Origin: Bacteroidales bacterium
GTDB lineage: Bacteria > Bacteroidota > Bacteroidia > Bacteroidales > Azobacteroidaceae
Direction: 5' to 3'
Assembly (NCBI GenBank): GCA_031553835.1
Contig: JAVBKX010000009.1
Coordinates: 37,300 to 101,299, forward strand
Length of the DNA: 64,000 bases
In this document: positions 3,515 to 44,256 of the stretch, piece by piece
Layout of the letters: each line of letters starts with the position of its first letter
How positions within the stretch are numbered: the first letter of the stretch is position 1
Made by a program: the position numbers and the translations under genes
Notes under the pieces: generated by a model
Seen by the model: only the letters and a program-made list of their open reading frames with translations
Told to the model about the DNA's origin: nothing
Database searches by the model: none

Positions 3515-4774
3515 ATGCTATATTACCTTTTCAACTATCTTGATAAAATAGACTTTCCGGGCGCCGGGATGTTCCAATACATTTCATTCCGTTCGGCCAT
3601 GGCATTGATCTTTTCGTTATTCATTTCTACGCTTATCGGTAGAAAAATCATCGAAAAATTGCAAATGCTTCAAATTGGTGAGATTGTCCGCGACCTCGGA
3701 TTGGAAGGACAAATGAGTAAAAAAGGAACACCTACAATGGGCGGGATCATCATCATTATTTCTATTTTGATTCCGGTATTACTGTTTGCCAAATTGAGTA
3801 ATATCTATATTATCTTAATGATTATCACCACTGTATGGTTGGGAAGCATCGGCTTTTTGGATGATTATATCAAAGTATTCAAAAAAGATAAAGATGGATT
3901 GAGCGGAAAGTTTAAAATTGTGGGACAGGTCGGATTGGGACTGATCGTTGGATTGACATTATATCTGAGTCCGGATGTGATGATGCGCGAAAATACCGAA
4001 GTCGTCAACCACAACGGTGTAATTACGGAAGTGAAACACAGCCCGGCGGTCAAATCTACCAAAACCACCATTCCGTTTTTCAAAAATAATAATTTCGATT
4101 ACCGCAGCCTGGCTTCTTTTATGCCCAAATATCGTACAGCGGCTACCTGGATTATTTTCGTAATCGTTACGATTTTTATTGTAACAGCGGTATCTAACGG
4201 AGCCAATCTGACTGACGGATTAGACGGATTAGCGACAGGAAGCTCGGCCATCATCGGGGTCACATTAGCCGTTTTGGCATACGTTTCGAGTCACGTCGAA
4301 TACGCGGCCTACCTCAATATTATGTACATTCCGAAATGTGAGGAATTGGCCGTATTTGCCAGCGCATTTATCGGAGCTACAGTAGGTTTTCTTTGGTACA
4401 ATGCCTTTCCCGCACAGGTATTCATGGGCGATACCGGTTCATTAACCCTGGGAGGAATTATCGCCGTTTTTGCCATTATCATTCATAAAGAATTGTTGTT
4501 GCCCATTTTATGTGGTATTTTCTTTGTCGAAAGTTTATCGGTAATGATGCAGGTTTCTTATTTCAAATATACCAGGAAAAAAAACGGCACAGGAAAACGA
4601 ATTTTCAAAATGACGCCTTTGCACCATCATTTCCAAAAACCCGGAAATTCGGGAATTGAAGCCATTATTCAAAAACCGCTCCGGGCTATTCCGGAATCAA
4701 AAATAGTAATCCGGTTTTGGCTGATCGGTATCATTTTGGCGGTATTAACCATTGTAACATTAAAAATGAGATAA
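3515..4774 (+). CDS. mraY: Phospho-N-acetylmuramoyl-pentapeptide transferase
   Basis: 419-aa polytopic membrane protein with MraY motifs [10 protein letters not shown] and FMGDTGSL; dcw position. Confidence 0.93.
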
Positions 4775-4783
4775 TAGTTGCAT

Positions 4784-4841
4784 GTTACAAGTTACGAGTT
4801 ACATACAAGAGACTCGCAACTTGTAACTCGTAACTCGTAAC
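4784..4841. repeat. Heptamer-periodic inverted repeat (GTTACRA x3 ... TCGTAAC x3) in the mraY-murD spacer
   Basis: GTTACAAGTTACGAGTTAC (4784-4802) pairs with GTAACTCGTAACTCGTAAC (4823-4841), 18/19 complementary with a 20-nt loop. It ends 6 nt before the murD ATG. Confidence 0.8.
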
Positions 4842-4847
4842 TATAAT

Positions 4848-7464: not shown

Positions 7465-7506
7465 TGAGTGGAGAATTGAGAATTGAGAGTTGAGAGTTGA
7501 GAATTA
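7465..7506. repeat. Six tandem heptamers (consensus AGARTTG) directly after the ftsW stop
   Basis: TGAGTGG AGAATTG AGAATTG AGAGTTG AGAGTTG AGAATTA, read directly. No complementary arm nearby. Confidence 0.85.
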
Positions 7507-7526
7507 AATATATAACGATTACCTGA

Positions 7527-8627
7527 ATGAAAGTAATTATTAGTGGAGGTGGTACCGGAGGACATATTTTTCCGGCTATTTCGATAGCCAATGCAATGAA
7601 AGCTCGACATCCGGAAACTGATATCCTTTTTATAGGAGCGGAAAACAGGATGGAAATGACCCGGGTTCCTGCGGCTGGATATAAAATCATCGGATTGCCT
7701 ATCATGGGATTCAACCGTAAGAACTTATTTAAAAATGTTGTAGTGGCGTGGAAACTATTGAAATCTATGTCATTAGCCCGGAAAACGTTGCGCCGTTTCA
7801 ATCCCGATATCGTAATAGGTGTGGGAGGGTATGCCAGCGGACCAACATTGAAAGTGGCGAATCAAATGAATATACCGACATTGATTCAGGAACAAAATTC
7901 TTATGCAGGAGTAACTAATAAATTATTGGCGAAAGAAGCCATAAAAATTTGTGTCGCTTATGAAGGCATGGAAGCTTTTTTTCCAAAAAATAAGATTGTC
8001 CTGACCGGAAATCCGGTACGGAATAACCTGGAATTTTCGGAAGCAAAACGAAAGGAAGCCATTGCCGAATTTCAATTAGATCCGGCAAAAAAAACGATTC
8101 TTGTGGTGGGTGGCAGCCTTGGCGCCCGTACAATGAACGACAGCATGATACAAAATTGGGAAAAGTGGCGAAAAGCGACAAATGTACAAGTGATCTGGCA
8201 ATCGGGAAAATATCATTATAACAGTTGTGCTTCGGAAGTGGCTTTACGTCCCGATGCCCCGGTAAAATTGTATGAATTTATTTCGCGGATGGACTTGGCT
8301 TATACGGTTGCAGATGTCATTGTTTCCCGCGCAGGAGCCGGAACAATTTCTGAGCTTTGCATTGTAGGAAAACCGGTTATCTTGATTCCTTCCCCGAATG
8401 TGGCGGAAGATCACCAAACCAAAAATGCCATCAGTTTGGTTCATAAAAATGCTGCTATAATGATTACTGATGACGAAGCGATAACCAAACTCGTCAATAT
8501 GGCATTAGGCTTGATTCAAAATGAAAACAAACAAAAAGAACTCAGTCTGAATATCGCAAAATTAGCATTACCCAATGCTGCGGAACAAATTGTGGATGAG
8601 ATTGAAAAGATATTGAAAATCCGGTAA
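7527..8627 (+). CDS. murG: Undecaprenyldiphospho-muramoylpentapeptide beta-N-acetylglucosaminyltransferase
   Basis: N-terminal GGGTGGHIFPAISIA and C-terminal SRAGAGTISE; dcw position. Confidence 0.92.
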   Translation: MKVIISGGGTGGHIFPAISIANAMKARHPETDILFIGAENRMEMTRVPAAGYKIIGLPIMGFNRKNLFKNVVVAWKLLKSMSLARKTLRRFNPDIVIGVGGYASGPTLKVANQMNIPTLIQEQNSYAGVTNKLLAKEAIKICVAYEGMEAFFPKNKIVLTGNPVRNNLEFSEAKRKEAIAEFQLDPAKKTILVVGGSLGARTMNDSMIQNWEKWRKATNVQVIWQSGKYHYNSCASEVALRPDAPVKLYEFISRMDLAYTVADVIVSRAGAGTISELCIVGKPVILIPSPNVAEDHQTKNAISLVHKNAAIMITDDEAITKLVNMALGLIQNENKQKELSLNIAKLALPNAAEQIVDEIEKILKIR

Positions 8628-8633
8628 CAAAAA

Positions 8634-10100
8634 ATGAACAACTTAAACGATATAAAATATATTTATTTCCTTGGCGCCGGAGGCATCGGTATGAGCGCGC
8701 TCGTCCGCTATTTCCTCTCAAAAGGGAAAATGGTAGCCGGATATGACCGTACGGAAACCGAACTGACAAAACAACTTAATCAGGAAGGGGCCAATATTCA
8801 TTACGACGATAATGTCGATGCAATTCCCGAAGCATTCAAAAATAAGGAAGAATCTTTAATTGTATTGACTCCGGCTGTTCCAAACGACCATTCTGAATTT
8901 TGTTTTTTCCGCGACAATGGTTTCAAAATCTTAAAACGGGCGCAAGTGTTGGGAGAAATCACTGAAACCAACCGGGGAATTTGTATTGCCGGAACCCATG
9001 GTAAAACAACGACCTCTTCCATGACTGCGCATTTATTGAAACAATCGCATATTGATTGTAACGCATTCTTAGGCGGAATTCTGAAAAATTACGACAATAA
9101 CCTGTTGCTGTCCGACAAAAGTGATTTAACTGTTATCGAAGCCGACGAGTACGACCGTTCTTTTCACTGGTTGTCCCCTTATATGGCTGTCATCACATCG
9201 GTCGATCCCGACCATTTGGATATTTACGGTACAGAAAAAGCGTATCGCGAAAGTTTCGTTCATTTTACTTCTTTAATCCGCGAAAATGGAGTTTTACTAA
9301 TAAAAGAAGGTATTGATCTTCAACCGAAATTGAAAAAAGGAGTAAAACTATATAAATATTCAGGTTCTTTCCTCCCCCTGCCCCCTCCAGAGGGGGATAA
9401 GGCTGGCGCAAGCTATCCCCCTCTGGAGGGGGCAGGGGGAGGACAATTCCCAAACCACCCTGATTTCTATGCTCAAAATATTCAAATCAAAAACGGAGAA
9501 ATTTATTTCGACTTTGTTACTCCAGGCGAAACTATTACCCATATTCAACTTGGCGTTCCGGTGAGAATCAATATTGAAAACGGAATCGCCGCCATGGCAT
9601 TGGCCTGGCTCAACGGAGCAACAGCCGAAGAATTGCGCGCCGGCATGGCCTCATTCGAAGGAGCTAAACGACGATTCGATTTTCATTTAAAAACCGATAA
9701 AATCGTTTTAATCGACGATTATGCGCATCATCCCGAAGAATTAAGCGCCAGTATCAATTCAGTCAAAGAACTGTATCCCAAGCGGAAACTGACCGTTATC
9801 TTCCAACCCCATCTATTTTCTCGTACCCGGGATTTCTATAAAGAATTCGCAGAATCATTATCTTTGTCGGATGATGTAATGTTGCTTGATATTTATCCGG
9901 CACGGGAAAAACCCATTCCGGGAATTACCTCGCAATTGATTTTAGATCTTGTAACGTCCAACAGCAAACAAATATGCAGCAAAGCAAATTTGCTGAATAT
10001 TCTGGAACAAGGACAATATGAGGTCGTTTTAATTGCCGGAGCGGGAGATATCGACACAATGGTTTTACCCATTAAACAATTATTAGCTACAAAATGCTGA
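8634..10100 (+). CDS. murC: UDP-N-acetylmuramate--L-alanine ligase, carrying an in-frame insertion of about 29 aa
   Basis: GAGGIGMSAL Rossmann motif, P-loop IAGTHGKTTTSSM, DDYAHHP. 488 aa. The segment SFLPLPPPEGDKAGASYPPLEGAGGGQFP (aa 245-273) is encoded by the palindrome at 9370-9443 and its flanks. Confidence 0.92.
   Translation: MNNLNDIKYIYFLGAGGIGMSALVRYFLSKGKMVAGYDRTETELTKQLNQEGANIHYDDNVDAIPEAFKNKEESLIVLTPAVPNDHSEFCFFRDNGFKILKRAQVLGEITETNRGICIAGTHGKTTTSSMTAHLLKQSHIDCNAFLGGILKNYDNNLLLSDKSDLTVIEADEYDRSFHWLSPYMAVITSVDPDHLDIYGTEKAYRESFVHFTSLIRENGVLLIKEGIDLQPKLKKGVKLYKYSGSFLPLPPPEGDKAGASYPPLEGAGGGQFPNHPDFYAQNIQIKNGEIYFDFVTPGETITHIQLGVPVRINIENGIAAMALAWLNGATAEELRAGMASFEGAKRRFDFHLKTDKIVLIDDYAHHPEELSASINSVKELYPKRKLTVIFQPHLFSRTRDFYKEFAESLSLSDDVMLLDIYPAREKPIPGITSQLILDLVTSNSKQICSKANLLNILEQGQYEVVLIAGAGDIDTMVLPIKQLLATKC
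9370..9443. repeat. GC-rich perfect palindrome (30-bp arms, 14-nt loop) inserted in-frame in murC; MITE/RPE-like
   Basis: TCCTCCCCCTGCCCCCTCCAGAGGGGGATA (9370-9399) is the exact reverse complement of TATCCCCCTCTGGAGGGGGCAGGGGGAGGA (9414-9443). Arms are about 75% GC in an AT-rich genome. Confidence 0.9.
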
Positions 10101-10828
10101 AAAAAATTGCAGCCATATCACTTGCATCATTCCTGTTGGCATATATTATTTTTGCCATGCTGGTTTTAGGCCCGAAGGAAAATGAAAATATCTGTACCGA
10201 TGTAGATGTGGTCGTCTTAGATACATTAGATCGCCATTTTATTGATAATAAAGACATCAATTCAGCTCTCAAAAAAGCAGACCTTTCCCCTATCGGAAAA
10301 AAAATGAATGATATCAATACTGCCATTATTGAGAAAAAATTAGCGGAAAATCAACTAATCAAGCGAGTGGAATGTTATAAAACGGTCAACAACCATATAA
10401 AAATTGAAATACATCAGAAAGTGCCTTTGCTTCGGGTAATGAGTGATGCGGGCGATTTTTATGTAGATACCGAAGGAGAAACTATGCCGGCAGTATTCGG
10501 ACTGGTCGCTTATCTCCCGTTGGTGACCGGTAGCATTGATAAAGAATTTGCAAAAACCAAATTATATGATTTCGCATTGTTTTTGCAGGATAATAAGTTT
10601 TGGAATGCTCAAATTGAACAAATTCATGTGTTGCCAAATAAAGACATCGAATTGACTCCCCGAGTGGGACGACATCGTATTTTGTTAGGAACATTGGATG
10701 ATTATCCCGAAAAACTGGACAAACTAAAACTTTTTTACGAAAAAGGATTGAATCAGGTAGGTTGGAACCAATATTCGGTTATCAACTTAAAATATAAAAA
10801 CCAGGTGGTTTGCACAAAAAACAATTGA
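10094..10828 (+). CDS. ftsQ: Cell-division protein FtsQ-like (single TM + POTRA-like region)
   Basis: 244 aa with N-terminal TM segment IAAISLASFLLAYIIFAMLVL. Overlaps the murC stop by 7 nt; lies between murC and ftsA. Confidence 0.75.
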   Translation: MLKKIAAISLASFLLAYIIFAMLVLGPKENENICTDVDVVVLDTLDRHFIDNKDINSALKKADLSPIGKKMNDINTAIIEKKLAENQLIKRVECYKTVNNHIKIEIHQKVPLLRVMSDAGDFYVDTEGETMPAVFGLVAYLPLVTGSIDKEFAKTKLYDFALFLQDNKFWNAQIEQIHVLPNKDIELTPRVGRHRILLGTLDDYPEKLDKLKLFYEKGLNQVGWNQYSVINLKYKNQVVCTKNN

Positions 10829-10833
10829 AAGTG

Positions 10834-10897
10834 GAGAATTGAAAATGAATTGGTAAGCGCTTTCATTTTCAACTCTCAACTCTTAATTCTCAATTAA
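10834..10897. repeat. Hairpin plus heptamer tract (RC of the AGARTTG family) in the ftsQ-ftsA spacer
   Basis: GAGAATTGAAAATGAA (10834-10849) pairs with TTCATTTTCAACTCTC (10862-10877), 15/16. The right arm continues as TCAACTC TCAACTC TTAATTC TCAATTA. Confidence 0.8.
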
Positions 10898-10906
10898 TTA
10901 AGGATT

Positions 10907-12325
10907 ATGGAACAAACAGGATTTATCGCAGCTATCGATTTGGGTTCATCCAAAATCGTTGCCATGGCAGGAAGAAAAAACCAGGAAGGAAAATTAGCCA
11001 TTCTATACAAAGAAGAAATAGAATCGGATACTTGCATCCGGCGCGGCCGTATTTATAACCTGGAAGAAACTCAACGTAAAATCAGTAGTTTAATATTAAA
11101 ACTGGAAAGCAAATTTCCTCAAAAATCCAGAATAGAAAAAATATATATCGGCATTGGAGGCCAATCGCTCCAAACCGAAATATGTACTGTATTAAGAAAT
11201 TTCACAGAAGAGGGAGGCATCATTTTGAACGAAGCAATCTTACAATCGATTCGGAAAGAATGTGAATCATACGAACGGGATTCGGAAATGCTCGACATTA
11301 TATCTGCCGAATACTTCCTGGATGAACAGGATGTCCCGGTAAAAGATCCGGTAGGACTCGCCTGCTCTTCTATCGAAGCCCAATTCAAATTGATTGTTAC
11401 CAAACCGGCTAAAAAATTCCTGGCCGATAGCCTGGAAAAAGCCAGGACTACTGTCGCCGGTTATGTGATCGGCCCCATGGCAACTGCCAATGCCGTATTG
11501 AATGATGAAGATAAAAAAAATGGCTGCGCTTTGGTCGAAATCGGAGCGGGAGTCACTTACCTCTCAATTTACAAACAAGGGACACTGAAAGAGTTGATCA
11601 CTATCCCAATGGGCGGAATTTCCATCACCAAAGATATTGCCAGCCTCAACATTTCGATGAAAGAGGCTGAAAATCTCAAAATAAAATATGGAACCGCTAT
11701 CGCCGACCCGGATGAAGGAAACAAGACGATCCCGGTGGTCAACCCTGAAAATAACGGACCGAAAGAAATTGAATTCAAACTGCTTGAACAAATTATTGAA
11801 GCAAGAATAAATGAAATCATAGCCAACGTACAGCAGCAGCTCCGGTTGTCGAAACATGAGAATGGCCTCAACGCCGGTATTATACTTACCGGAGGAGGTT
11901 CTCAATTGAATAAAATTGCTGCCGCTTTCCGAAATAAAATGAAGTACGATATTCGTTTGGCTGTACCCAAACATCAGCTATTTCAAAAAGCAGAAGAAGA
12001 ATACAATAATCCGGCTTATTCGGAAATGATCGGTATCTTATTGGCAGGTTCGGAAAATTGTGTGAAAGTGATAGAACCCGCTCCCACCCCACCCGTTACA
12101 ACTCCTTCGCCTGCTCCTGAGCAAGGTAGTTTGTTCCGAGACGACGAAGTAAAAATAGAACAACCGGCAGGAACAGGCAAAAAACAAGATGGCGACACAA
12201 AATCCGGAGGAGGACTCTTTTCCCGATTCAAAAGAGGTGTGAAAAATACAATGGATAGCGCTTCCAAATCCCTTTTTGATGAAGATTTGGATGGAAGAAA
12301 AAATGAAGAAAATACAGAAAAATAA
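10907..12325 (+). CDS. ftsA: Cell-division protein FtsA (actin-like ATPase)
   Basis: IAAIDLGSSKIV and GGGSQL motifs. Pro-rich/charged C-terminal tail with an amphipathic GGLFSRFKRGVKN segment; dcw position. Confidence 0.9.
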   Translation: MEQTGFIAAIDLGSSKIVAMAGRKNQEGKLAILYKEEIESDTCIRRGRIYNLEETQRKISSLILKLESKFPQKSRIEKIYIGIGGQSLQTEICTVLRNFTEEGGIILNEAILQSIRKECESYERDSEMLDIISAEYFLDEQDVPVKDPVGLACSSIEAQFKLIVTKPAKKFLADSLEKARTTVAGYVIGPMATANAVLNDEDKKNGCALVEIGAGVTYLSIYKQGTLKELITIPMGGISITKDIASLNISMKEAENLKIKYGTAIADPDEGNKTIPVVNPENNGPKEIEFKLLEQIIEARINEIIANVQQQLRLSKHENGLNAGIILTGGGSQLNKIAAAFRNKMKYDIRLAVPKHQLFQKAEEEYNNPAYSEMIGILLAGSENCVKVIEPAPTPPVTTPSPAPEQGSLFRDDEVKIEQPAGTGKKQDGDTKSGGGLFSRFKRGVKNTMDSASKSLFDEDLDGRKNEENTEK

Positions 12326-36892: not shown

Positions 36893-36905
36893 TTAATTGA
36901 GAGTG

Positions 36906-36961
36906 GAGAGTGGAGAATAGAGAATTCAAAAAACGTTTTCAATTCTCTATTCTCTACTCTC
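36906..36961. repeat. 21-bp-stem hairpin made of GAGARTN heptamers, in the ABC-F 5' leader
   Basis: GAGAGTGGAGAATAGAGAATT (36906-36926) versus AATTCTCTATTCTCTACTCTC (36941-36961): 20/21 complementary. The loop contains the palindrome AAAACGTTTT. Confidence 0.85.
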
Positions 36962-42381: not shown

Positions 42382-44256
42382 ATGACGTTTCATTATGATG
42401 TAATTGTTGTCGGAGCCGGCCATGCAGGATGCGATGCCGCCGTTGCCGCCGCTAATTTGGGTTCTAAAACATTGCTGATAACAATGGATATGAATAAAAT
42501 AGCCCAAATGAGTTGTAATCCGGCAGTTGGAGGAATTGCAAAAGGGCAGATTGTTCGTGAAATTGATGCTTTAGGCGGACAAATGGGAATTGTAACCGAT
42601 AGAACGGCGATTCAATTCCGGATGTTGAACCGATCAAAAGGCCCTGCAATGTGGAGTCCGCGGGCGCAAAGCGACCGTGCCCGTTTTCTCGAAACCTGGC
42701 GAATGAGGATTGATCAAACTCCGAATTTGTCTGTTTGGCAAGATACCGTAACCGAATTATTGATTGAAAATAAAACGGTTTGTGGTGTGAAAACTGCTTT
42801 AGGTGTTGAATTTTCTTCAAAAACAGTTGTTCTAACTGTCGGTACTTTTTTGAACGGATTACTTCATATCGGAAAAACACAATTGCGTGGCGGTCGCATT
42901 TCAGAACCTGCTTCTTATGGAATTACAGAGCAATTGGTTTCTTTGGACTTTTCTGCTGATCGAATGAAAACAGGAACTCCTGTTAGAATTGATGGAAGAA
43001 GTGTTGATTTTTCCTTGATGGAAGAGCAACCCGGTGAAACGGATTTTCATAAATTTTCTTTTATGAATTATCCATCTCGCCCATTAAAGCAGTTGAGTTG
43101 TTGGACTACTTATACAAATGAGCAAACTCATAATATATTGCGTGATGGATTGGTCGATTCTCCTCTTTATAATGGGCAGATTCAGAGTATAGGACCTCGT
43201 TATTGTCCGAGTATTGAAACCAAAATTGTCACTTTTGCAGATAAATTGCAACATCAGTTATTTTTGGAGCCGGAAGGAGAAAATACACAGGAGTATTATT
43301 TGAATGGATTTTCTTCTTCATTGCCTTTGGCTACACAGTTGAATGCATTGCAAACAATTCCTGCATTTCGAAATATTCAGATTTATCGTCCGGGGTATGC
43401 CATTGAATATGATTTTTTTGATCCTACTCAATTGACTCATACATTGGAAACGAAGCAAATTAAAAATTTGTTTTTTGCCGGACAAATTAATGGGACTACG
43501 GGTTATGAAGAAGCAGGCGCTCAAGGTTTGATGGCCGGAATTAATGCGCATATTCAAACTCATGGGGGAGAAGATTTTGTATTAGGTCGCGATGAGGCGT
43601 ATATTGGAGTGCTTATTGACGATTTGGTTACAAAAGGTGTGGATGAACCTTATCGAATGTTTACTTCCCGTGCAGAATATCGTATTTTGTTGCGTCAGGA
43701 TGATGCGGATATGCGATTGACGGAAAAATCATATCAATTGGGATTAGCTTCTTCTGCCCGGTATAATCTTTTGCTTGAGAAGCGAAGTGAAATTTCCCGA
43801 ATTGTGGATTTTGTAAATTCTTATTCTGTAAAGGCTGATTATGTTAATGCTGGTTTGGAAGAATTTGGAACTGTTCCTTTGAAACGAGGCGTAAAATTAA
43901 TTGATTTAGTGTTGCGTCCACAATTGGATTTGCAAAAATTATCAGAATTGATTCCCGCTTTGCGTGAACAATTGGAATTAGTTCCTGATCGGAAAGAAGA
44001 AATTATTGAAGCTGCTGAGATTTTGATGAAGTATAATGGCTATATTGAAAGGGAAAAATTGATAGCGGATAAGATTAATAGATTGGAAGGTGTTAAAATT
44101 AAAGGAAAATTTGATTATGGCACGATTCAATCTTTGTCAACCGAAGCAAAACAAAAGCTGAGCCGAATAGATCCGGAGACAATTGCTCAGGCAAGTCGGA
44201 TTCCAGGGGTTTCTCCAAATGATATAAATGTTTTGTTGGTTTTGTTGGGGCGATAA
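42382..44256 (+). CDS. mnmG: tRNA uridine-5-carboxymethylaminomethyl modification enzyme MnmG (GidA)
   Basis: 624 aa with FAD motif YDVIVVGAGHAGCDAA and the GidA pattern MSCNPAVGGIAKGQIVREIDALGG. Confidence 0.95.
   Translation: MTFHYDVIVVGAGHAGCDAAVAAANLGSKTLLITMDMNKIAQMSCNPAVGGIAKGQIVREIDALGGQMGIVTDRTAIQFRMLNRSKGPAMWSPRAQSDRARFLETWRMRIDQTPNLSVWQDTVTELLIENKTVCGVKTALGVEFSSKTVVLTVGTFLNGLLHIGKTQLRGGRISEPASYGITEQLVSLDFSADRMKTGTPVRIDGRSVDFSLMEEQPGETDFHKFSFMNYPSRPLKQLSCWTTYTNEQTHNILRDGLVDSPLYNGQIQSIGPRYCPSIETKIVTFADKLQHQLFLEPEGENTQEYYLNGFSSSLPLATQLNALQTIPAFRNIQIYRPGYAIEYDFFDPTQLTHTLETKQIKNLFFAGQINGTTGYEEAGAQGLMAGINAHIQTHGGEDFVLGRDEAYIGVLIDDLVTKGVDEPYRMFTSRAEYRILLRQDDADMRLTEKSYQLGLASSARYNLLLEKRSEISRIVDFVNSYSVKADYVNAGLEEFGTVPLKRGVKLIDLVLRPQLDLQKLSELIPALREQLELVPDRKEEIIEAAEILMKYNGYIEREKLIADKINRLEGVKIKGKFDYGTIQSLSTEAKQKLSRIDPETIAQASRIPGVSPNDINVLLVLLGR

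Follow-up and report, generated by a model that had tools for sequence, protein, structure and literature searches.

An in-frame palindrome in murC of a Bacteroidales bacterium is probably a doublet of a dispersed REP-like repeat

A stretch of 64,000 nucleotides from a Bacteroidales bacterium (GenBank assembly GCA_031553835.1, contig JAVBKX010000009.1, positions 37,300 to 101,299 of the forward strand), here called the window, carries a GC-rich palindrome inside murC, the gene for UDP-N-acetylmuramate--L-alanine ligase. The palindrome was characterised, its repeat unit was followed through other genomes, and the corresponding loop was compared among MurC relatives; the palindrome is probably an inverted doublet of a short dispersed repeat that resembles repetitive extragenic palindromic (REP) sequences. 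The host gene is murC, as judged by its Mur ligase domains, its intact open reading frame (ORF) and its position in a division and cell wall (dcw) cluster. The features at the locus are listed below in window coordinates.

8634..10100, forward strand: murC, the host gene, 488 aa, open throughout (from the ORF list)
9369..9443, forward strand: in-frame insert of 75 nt, made up of the 74-nt palindrome and one flanking base, residues 246-270, (F)LPLPPPEGDKAGASYPPLEGAGGG
9370..9399, reverse strand: left arm, the 30-nt unit in inverted orientation, TCCTCCCCCTGCCCCCTCCAGAGGGGGATA, with its own hairpin at 9381-9396
9400..9413, no strand: spacer forming the hairpin loop, AGGCTGGCGCAAGC
9414..9443, forward strand: right arm, the 30-nt unit in forward orientation, TATCCCCCTCTGGAGGGGGCAGGGGGAGGA, with its own hairpin at 9417-9432
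9265..9453, reverse strand: antisense ORF of 62 aa, non-genic, wholly within murC
7527-8627: murG, dcw cluster
10094-10828: ftsQ-like gene, dcw cluster
10907-12325: ftsA, dcw cluster

The arms are 30 nt each, 100% complementary and separated by 14 nt, and each contains a smaller hairpin with a 6-bp stem and a 4-nt loop (CCCCCT-CCAG/CTGG-AGGGGG). An earlier note on this sequence had described the same perfect 30-bp stem, 14-nt loop and sub-palindromes, and its coordinates were confirmed. The element is GC-rich in an AT-rich gene, as the note had said, although its figure of about 75% was too high: GC content was 70.3% in the 74-nt element, 40.5% in the remaining murC and 37.9% in the whole window. 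RNA folding of the palindrome region gave -80.5 kcal/mol, compared with -43.6 +/- 3.8 kcal/mol for dinucleotide shuffles (z=-9.7; 0/200 as good), and DNA folding gave -42.5 kcal/mol (z=-9.9). The gene reads in frame across the palindrome (...YKYSGSFLPLPPPEGDKAGASYPPLEGAGGGQFPNHPDFYAQNI; ...SGSF-LPLPPPEGDKAGASYPPLEGAGGG-QFPNHPDF...), and the peptide spanning the insert is LPLPPPEGDK/AGASYPPLEGAGGGQFPNHPDFYAQNIQIK. The in-frame placement claimed by the note therefore holds, since the 488-aa ORF is open, but the length of the element is refined: the palindrome of 74 nt is 2 mod 3, so that the in-frame insert is 75 nt, and the insert of a relative (L016, described below) is in the same phase. Because the palindrome is symmetric, the minus strand carries the antisense ORF with its mirror peptide, which had also been noticed. 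In agreement with the note, no second copy of the palindrome and no other C5...G5 hairpin was found within the 64-kb window, where the chance expectation for the core 16-mer is 0.08.

The repeat unit was searched for in a genome collection with the pattern CCCCCTNNNNAGGGGGCAGGGGGAGG, in which 22 bases were fixed, and at least 142 copies were recovered from at least 120 loci. A profile of 137 distinct copies aligned on the core gave a 30-nt unit with the consensus TRT-CCCCCT-YTGG-AGGGGG-C-AGGGGGAGG-A. Its borders are sharp (T in 91%, R, and T in 100% of copies 5' of the core; A in 78% 3' of it), with background composition further out, and the flanks of the copies are unrelated to each other. 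The murC arms are exactly this unit, once inverted and once forward. Among the matches listed, 140 copies were classified, with 96 singlets, 22 outward doublets (spacers of 4-80 nt), 11 copies beside a gene of the DUF559 family and 14 with an inward-facing partner within 750 nt; about 90% lay outside long ORFs, and several genomes or metagenome-assembled genomes (MAGs) contributed at least 3 to 7 loci each. The hosts were mostly Bacteroidota (Pedobacter and other Sphingobacteriaceae, Adhaeribacter, Flavobacteriales, Saprospiraceae, Cytophagales, Bacteroidales and Dysgonomonadaceae), with a minority in Syntrophales, Brocadia/Kuenenia, Planctomycetota and Ignavibacteria/Chlorobiota. The unit is REP-like and is scattered over Bacteroidota and a small number of other phyla; neither the unit family nor its host group was described in the literature searched.

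A general role of the unit in 5' untranslated regions or as a Shine-Dalgarno sequence was considered and rejected, as an ORF started within 80 nt downstream of 42 of the 142 copies (30%) versus 31% of random positions. The GGAGGA end of the unit often lies 5' of an ATG in phage contigs and in the DUF559 cassettes described below. Single units were seen in putative phage contigs from IMG/VR (L009, L011, L020 and L022), two of them with the GGAGGA end 4-6 nt ahead of an ATG, and BLASTN of the element against plasmid and phage collections gave no match, for which the low-complexity filter is possibly responsible. Rfam searches of the murC element and of 18 unit-bearing loci gave no family at its gathering threshold, only eukaryotic microRNA-hairpin noise and sub-threshold matches to whalefall-1. 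Tandem arrays with near-identical intervening sequence, in which the unit recurs at fixed periods of about 161, 243 and 180 bp, were observed in L052 (5148-5656), L096 (5477-5988), L121 (3748-4500) and L058 (2339-2852).

About 23 copies among the matches listed lie within stop-free stretches of at least 150 codons, eight of them with Pfam domains on either side of the insert or across it. About ten copies are placed in frame within other genuine genes, and the in-frame hosts include a hybrid two-component sensor (unit between the HATPase_c and receiver domains), TilS, an HTTM/VKGC-lumenal protein that carries a doublet, a UDP-sugar dehydrogenase of a Dysgonomonadaceae MAG, an aldolase/short-chain-dehydrogenase fusion, an NTP_transf_5 protein of Brocadia, a CHAT protein and a GH2/malectin protein. 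Frames and orientations vary among the in-frame copies, giving the peptides PPLEGAGGG, SPFGGGRGR, PLWRGQGE and LPLPPPEGD. The unit contains no stop codon in any of the six frames, so that any insertion that keeps the frame can be translated, and for the same reason the 74-nt doublet is open in 4/6 frames. Reports exist of REPs within the ORFs of several species and of Rickettsia palindromic elements (RPEs) in Rickettsia (PMC3733652), so the phenomenon of in-frame repeats is already known. In a hybrid two-component protein of Bacteroides sp. 51 (L101, 1610-1790), four 33-nt tandem repeats encoding SEALHPGSHAG were observed directly 5' of an in-frame unit, and a doublet elsewhere in the same genome (L086) has a 51-nt spacer made of this 33-nt repeat sequence.

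The place of the insert in the protein was evaluated with MurC relatives and a structural model. Relatives show the Pfam domains PF01225, PF08245 and PF02875 (Mur ligase N-terminal, middle and C-terminal domains), and the closest are MAGs of Dysgonomonadaceae and Candidatus Symbiothrix with identities of at most 74-75%. Matches to MurC structures in the PDB, down to 1.6e-70, fall into two blocks (residues 4-228 and 273-446), with the insert region unmatched. An AlphaFold2 model was built from a 31-sequence alignment and reached a mean predicted local distance difference test (pLDDT) score of 82 and a predicted template modelling (pTM) score of 0.84. Its sole long segment with pLDDT <50 covers residues 248-273, between strands 238-243 and 278-286, and residues 246-270 are accordingly predicted as a disordered excursion at the tip of a beta-hairpin in the central domain; the insert is thus predicted to be a disordered surface loop between two strands. 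This loop is 37 aa long in the window MurC and 11 aa in the nearest relative (L019), where it is empty. Across 81 relatives with a delimitable loop, the baseline was 8-16 aa, and 18 of them exceeded 25 aa.

At the DNA level, at least five different palindromic repeat types were confirmed in this loop. The same doublet with identical arms and a 32-nt spacer is present in the more distant relative L016, apparently within a weak outer stem predicted by folding. In L017, also more distant, and in an independent Logan assembly (L018), only a forward unit is found, beside other small hairpins. Four further relatives (L143, L144, L145 and L146) hold unrelated GC-rich palindromes that fold at -24 to -76 kcal/mol, and peptide signatures suggest other repeat families in the loops of more relatives. 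Because relatives hold different GC-rich palindromes at this place, the loop can be regarded as an insertion hot spot. The window spacer AGGCTGGCGCAAGC is related to the 32-nt spacer of L016 and to a 5' extension (GGCGCAAGC) of L017. Two side observations were made in the same protein set. MurC is fused to MurG in several proteins of 820-850 aa (P0054, P0059, P0069, P0070, P0073, P0074 and others), the Mur ligase domains coming after those of glycosyltransferase 28. A Parabacteroides-like MurC (P0041) has a tandem duplication of about 40 aa (FYAENVRIGGGEIFFDFVGPDVRIPDIQLGVPVKVNIEN...) beside the insert loop, at alignment columns of about 300-400, which could be real or an assembly artefact.

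A neighbour-joining tree of MurC (453 gap-free columns, 300 bootstraps) grouped the window MurC with P0003 and P0004, whose loops are empty (100% bootstrap), and P0006 with P0009, which is likewise empty. The three unit carriers were never recovered together in 300 bootstraps (0%). Window and L016 are 71-74% identical over murC and about 50% identical at third codon positions, and their two arms are identical at 60/60 positions, for which the chance expectation is 0.72^60 or about 3e-9. The sequence adjoining the arms is unrelated between the two (...GGTTCTT / CAATTCC... in the window, ...CTCAGA / CTGAAC... in L016). A single ancient neutral insertion is excluded because the arms are 60/60 identical while murC is at about 72%. 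The simplest reading of these comparisons would be independent insertions of fresh copies into a permissive loop, to which gene conversion or a strong constraint on the unit are the alternatives.

We therefore favour, with a probability of roughly 0.78, the reading that the murC palindrome is the hairpin doublet of a REP-like dispersed unit, inserted as a non-autonomous element and retained in a tolerant loop. The doublet would have arrived by insertion at the DNA level, without target-site duplication, and would be translated rather than removed. It would have been kept because 75 nt preserve the frame, because all frames of the G/C-only unit are free of stop codons and because the central-domain loop tolerates 25 extra, disordered residues rich in Pro and Gly. 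The 30-bp stem in the mRNA is probably a cost (ribosome pausing, possibly a target of RNase III) that is tolerated, not a designed signal. The main proposals of the earlier note fit this reading. Its suggestion of an RPE- or MITE-like hairpin element (MITE, miniature inverted-repeat transposable element) was borne out by a dispersed repeat with sharp 30-nt borders in the many other loci above, although membership in the Rickettsia RPE families was not shown and the closer structural match is the REP doublet, or REPIN. The tolerated surface loop that it placed in the central MurC domain corresponds to the low-confidence loop of the model, and in-frame behaviour recurs in unrelated genes. The orthologue alignment that it proposed was run and showed the closest orthologues to lack the insert, and no target-site duplication, which it had suggested looking for, was seen in the flanks. 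Its choice between recent insertion and selection for the structure has been sharpened in that the neutral old relic is ruled out.

The means of spread was approached through the genes near the unit. All-against-all BLAST of 785 ORFs within 2.5 kb of unit copies gave one specific recurrent neighbour family, of proteins of about 125-145 aa at 10 loci in different genomes, and one other recurrent cluster, which consisted of generic ABC ATPases encoded hundreds of bases away from the units. The specific family is DUF559 (PF04480, 1e-28 to 4e-34). A forward unit or a long-linker variant, e.g. CCCCCTCTTGAGGGGG-TGCCCGCAGGGCG-GGGGAGGA, lies 2-70 nt 5' of the DUF559 start, and in each unit-adjacent case an inverted unit lies at or just past the stop codon. 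For the reverse test, 80 metagenomic DUF559 loci were gathered by protein similarity alone, of which 76 had sufficient flanks. Inverted repeats were formed by the flanks in 37/76 (24/76 at a stricter cut-off), compared with 8/65 (4/65) for neighbouring control ORFs that are themselves contaminated by the same units. The cassette arms are either the 30-nt unit or a sister unit, TGTCCCCC-GCTGGC-GGGGG-(T/TGC)-AGGGGGTGGA, in which the T-A at the stem base is replaced by G-C on both sides. Cassettes are about 0.5 kb long with DUF559 as the sole gene, and cassettes 85-96% identical occur in different contexts, where similarity stops at the outer end of the repeat (downstream in L191/L202, on both sides in L209/L212).

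The DUF559 profile matched a Neisseria DUF559 structure (3HRL, 2e-26) and the homing endonuclease I-Bth0305I (3R3P, 3e-5), and the catalytic D...ExD...H columns are invariant; DUF559 has been grouped with Vsr and 3R3P before (Steczkiewicz 2012, PMC3424549). No report linking DUF559 to palindromic repeats was found in the literature searched. We tentatively propose, with somewhat less than even confidence, that a DUF559 nuclease recognises the unit and spreads cassettes and gene-less derivatives, by analogy with RAYT transposases for REPs and REPINs. A little more doubtful is the fuller version, in which the unit would be the terminal inverted repeat of a compact DUF559/Vsr-like PD-(D/E)XK cassette of about 0.5 kb, and singlets and doublets, that of murC included, its non-autonomous offspring. 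Two unusual arrangements were also observed. In L173 (about 1385-1960) a cassette with T-type units apparently interrupts the spacer of a G-type outward doublet (<uG][uT> gene <uT][uG>); general insertion of cassettes into doublet spacers was rejected, as this was seen in 1/72 only. In L087 (2927-3087), from the same MAG as L016, an intergenic inward pair of perfect units encloses a 100-nt A/T-rich interior without a gene, which makes it MITE-like since it has the cassette arm orientation but no gene.

Several observations weigh against the favoured reading or its DUF559 extension. The isolated 30-nt unit folds no better than its shuffles, only the doublet being exceptional, and its apparent invariance is partly built in because the scan fixed 22 bases. 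The window holds a single doublet in 64 kb and no DUF559 gene, no target-site duplication was found at the window, L016 or other doublets, and there is no closely related empty/filled murC pair to prove recent insertion. As for the cassettes, 24/72 DUF559 genes have no unit-like flank, and the GGAGGA ends point outward in the murC doublet and inward in the cassettes, so that with arms in opposite orientation the murC doublet is not a simple internal deletion of a cassette. Nuclease activity and transposition are putative for DUF559.

The strongest rival, though unlikely, holds that the units are immobile on their own and that DUF559 cassettes spread by homing or homologous recombination rather than by transposition, leaving singlets and doublets behind as decay products or recombination scars. 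In its favour, the cassettes are discrete modules bounded by units, DUF559 is related to a homing endonuclease, L173 has its nested cassette and L087 its gene-less pair. Against it, singlets outnumber cassettes by about 9:1 among the matches listed, no deletion can turn a cassette into an outward doublet, nesting was seen at one locus in 72, and the many genes with in-frame single units hold no traces of cassette sequence. Slightly less probable again is one old insertion in the common ancestor of Dysgonomonadaceae-like lineages, inherited vertically with many clean losses and with arms held by selection or gene conversion. It would account for the same unit family in the same loop and reading frame in three lineages, for a CCCAAAC motif 3' of the element in both window and L016, and for spacers that differ between these two by 18 nt, a multiple of three. 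The carriers, however, fall into three separate clades whose nearest members are empty (by the 100% and 0% bootstraps above), which would require at least 4 or 5 precise losses; window and L016 have unrelated sequence beside the arms, and the doublet of L016 apparently sits within its weak outer stem; and the arm identity is not what neutral inheritance would leave.

It is also improbable, and more so, that the hairpin is a selected structure of murC, acting as a translational pause site between folding units, in processing or stability of the dcw mRNA or as a protein-bound DNA cruciform. A perfect 30-bp stem at about -80 kcal/mol would suit such a role, as would the strong hairpins of different repeat families (-24 to -110 kcal/mol) that many relatives have at the same position. 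Yet the closest relatives and many others have a loop of 8-16 aa and no hairpin, the unit occurs in more than 100 unrelated contexts that are mostly intergenic and show no orientation preference relative to gene starts, and the hairpin has no Rfam family above threshold. An assembly or chimera artefact is hardly credible: the exact window MurC protein is known from a single NCBI record, but the arms are identical to the consensus of a repeat that occurs in many independent assemblies, the reading frame is kept, and the same unit family lies in the same loop of other MAGs, the L017 version being present in the independent Logan assembly as well. Insertion of a REP-like doublet as a non-autonomous element remains our preferred explanation.

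Other repeats were observed in the window. AT-rich hairpin repeats (AGTGGAGAATTGA...) lie in intergenic spacers at 7467-7479, 10823-10888, 36902-36961 and 43154-43166, including the ftsQ-ftsA spacer and that upstream of murG; the family has 6 matches versus 0.3 expected, and two of its sites are inverted repeats of 26-27 nt. An inverted repeat of short GTTAC(A/G)AGT-type repeats lies at 4769-4842, with arms of 31 nt (77% complementarity) and 20 nt (95%).

Essential genes that contain a translated palindromic repeat are known already, the best-known cases being those of Rickettsia. What appears to be new is the unit family, its link to DUF559 cassettes and the hot spot that several repeat families share in one MurC loop. 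The murC insert offers a clean Bacteroidales example with a defined unit and an empty-site comparison, and the loop, colonised by several unrelated palindromic families, marks permissive insertion sites in MurC and is a natural setting in which to study how proteins accommodate selfish DNA. The association with the unit gives a large 'domain of unknown function' family a testable function and marks out DUF559 as a candidate enzyme of a REP-like system that works without a RAYT. If the fuller DUF559 version is true, the REP/REPIN-RAYT way of life would have been invented twice, the second time independently and by nucleases of a family that is not known to mobilise repeats; the cassette would have spread over Bacteroidota and into Syntrophales, Brocadiales and Ignavibacteria/Chlorobiota, and Pro/Gly-rich loops would have been written repeatedly into proteins, essential ones too. 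For annotation, the units give rise to spurious antisense ORFs, exaggerate the length variation of proteins and may disrupt assemblies; recognising them improves the annotation of Bacteroidota MAGs.

The element and its cassettes were finally compared with known systems. The cassette protein resembles the Vsr family, I-Bth0305I (3R3P) and 3HRL in matching DUF559, 3HRL and 3R3P and in its invariant catalytic acidic residues. The known relatives differ in that they repair T/G mismatches or home group I introns, and in the literature searched none was reported with REP-like inverted repeats bracketing its gene. Whalefall-1 (RF01762) is a proposed non-coding RNA of unknown function from one metagenome (Weinberg 2010, PMC2864571). 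Its consensus, GUAUCuCuCC-UuGG-GGaGaGA...AGgGuGAGGAC, has UAU, a C-rich/G-rich hairpin, a linker and a AGGGNGAGGA box. The order UAU, hairpin, linker and AGGGNGAGGAC is shared with the unit, and long-linker unit variants occur upstream of DUF559 genes. Covariance scores of the arms were 22.0 (right) and 20.1 bits against a gathering threshold of 37, and the 24-nt linker is missing from the murC arms; on its sequence layout, whalefall-1 may be a long-linker cousin of the unit.

Bacterial MITEs such as Correia/NEMIS, RUP and Nezha, among others (PMC3733652), are similar to the murC element in its perfect 30-nt terminal inverted repeats, its 14-nt non-coding core and its stable transcribed hairpin, and a larger gene-carrying element, the DUF559 cassette, has the same repeats. 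The element differs from them in that it has no target-site duplication and no known insertion sequence (IS)-family transposase, DUF559 not being a known transposase, and in that the arms of the doublet are reversed relative to the gene-carrying cassette. RPEs are about 100-150 nt long, and the murC element is shorter at 74 nt. The phylum differs as well (Dysgonomonadaceae-like Bacteroidales host here, Rickettsia for RPEs). The likeness is one of behaviour and consists of palindromic repeats lying in frame in functional genes, essential ones included, whose extra surface peptide is translated (PMC3733652).

REP sequences, REPINs (REP doublets) and their RAYT transposases have been described together as 'REPtrons' (Bertels and Rainey 2011, PMC3116915, PMC3337134; Di Nocera 2013, PMC3733652). 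The unit described here ends in TRT and GGAGGA and lacks the GTAG/CGTC tag of the REP super-families (Di Nocera, PMC3733652), its partner gene is DUF559 (PD-(D/E)XK, Vsr-like) and not a Y1/HUH RAYT, and the same unit, hosted mainly by Bacteroidota, is common to several classes and even phyla. Tens to hundreds of copies per genome are a hallmark of REPs, compared with at least 3-7 loci in some MAGs and one in the 64-kb window. No Y1_Tnp family was present among the 785 ORFs near unit copies, and tblastn with the RAYT-like protein of L146 against unit-bearing and DUF559 loci returned L146 itself only. A RAYT association of the unit was therefore rejected, as there is none near its copies and the RAYT of L146 belongs to another, GTAG-type repeat family. 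In L146 (1600-2480) this Y1_Tnp (RAYT-like) gene lies directly upstream of murC between GTAG-type REP hairpins (TGTCCCGTTAGGGACAAAATATTGGTAGAAA, CCGTCCCGTAGGGACGG); a classical REPtron thus coexists with G/C-run repeats in the clade, and the same REP type was seen upstream of a DUF559 gene in L060. The similarities to REPs and REPINs are a sharply bounded unit of 20-40 nt (here 30 nt) that contains a short palindrome and lies in unrelated flanking sequence; singlets that occur together with inverted doublets, the latter folding into one long hairpin; a small gene for a nuclease between inverted units; copies that are mostly intergenic, with few in ORFs; and insertion without target-site duplication. 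On this comparison the murC element was classed as REP/REPIN-like and RPE-like.

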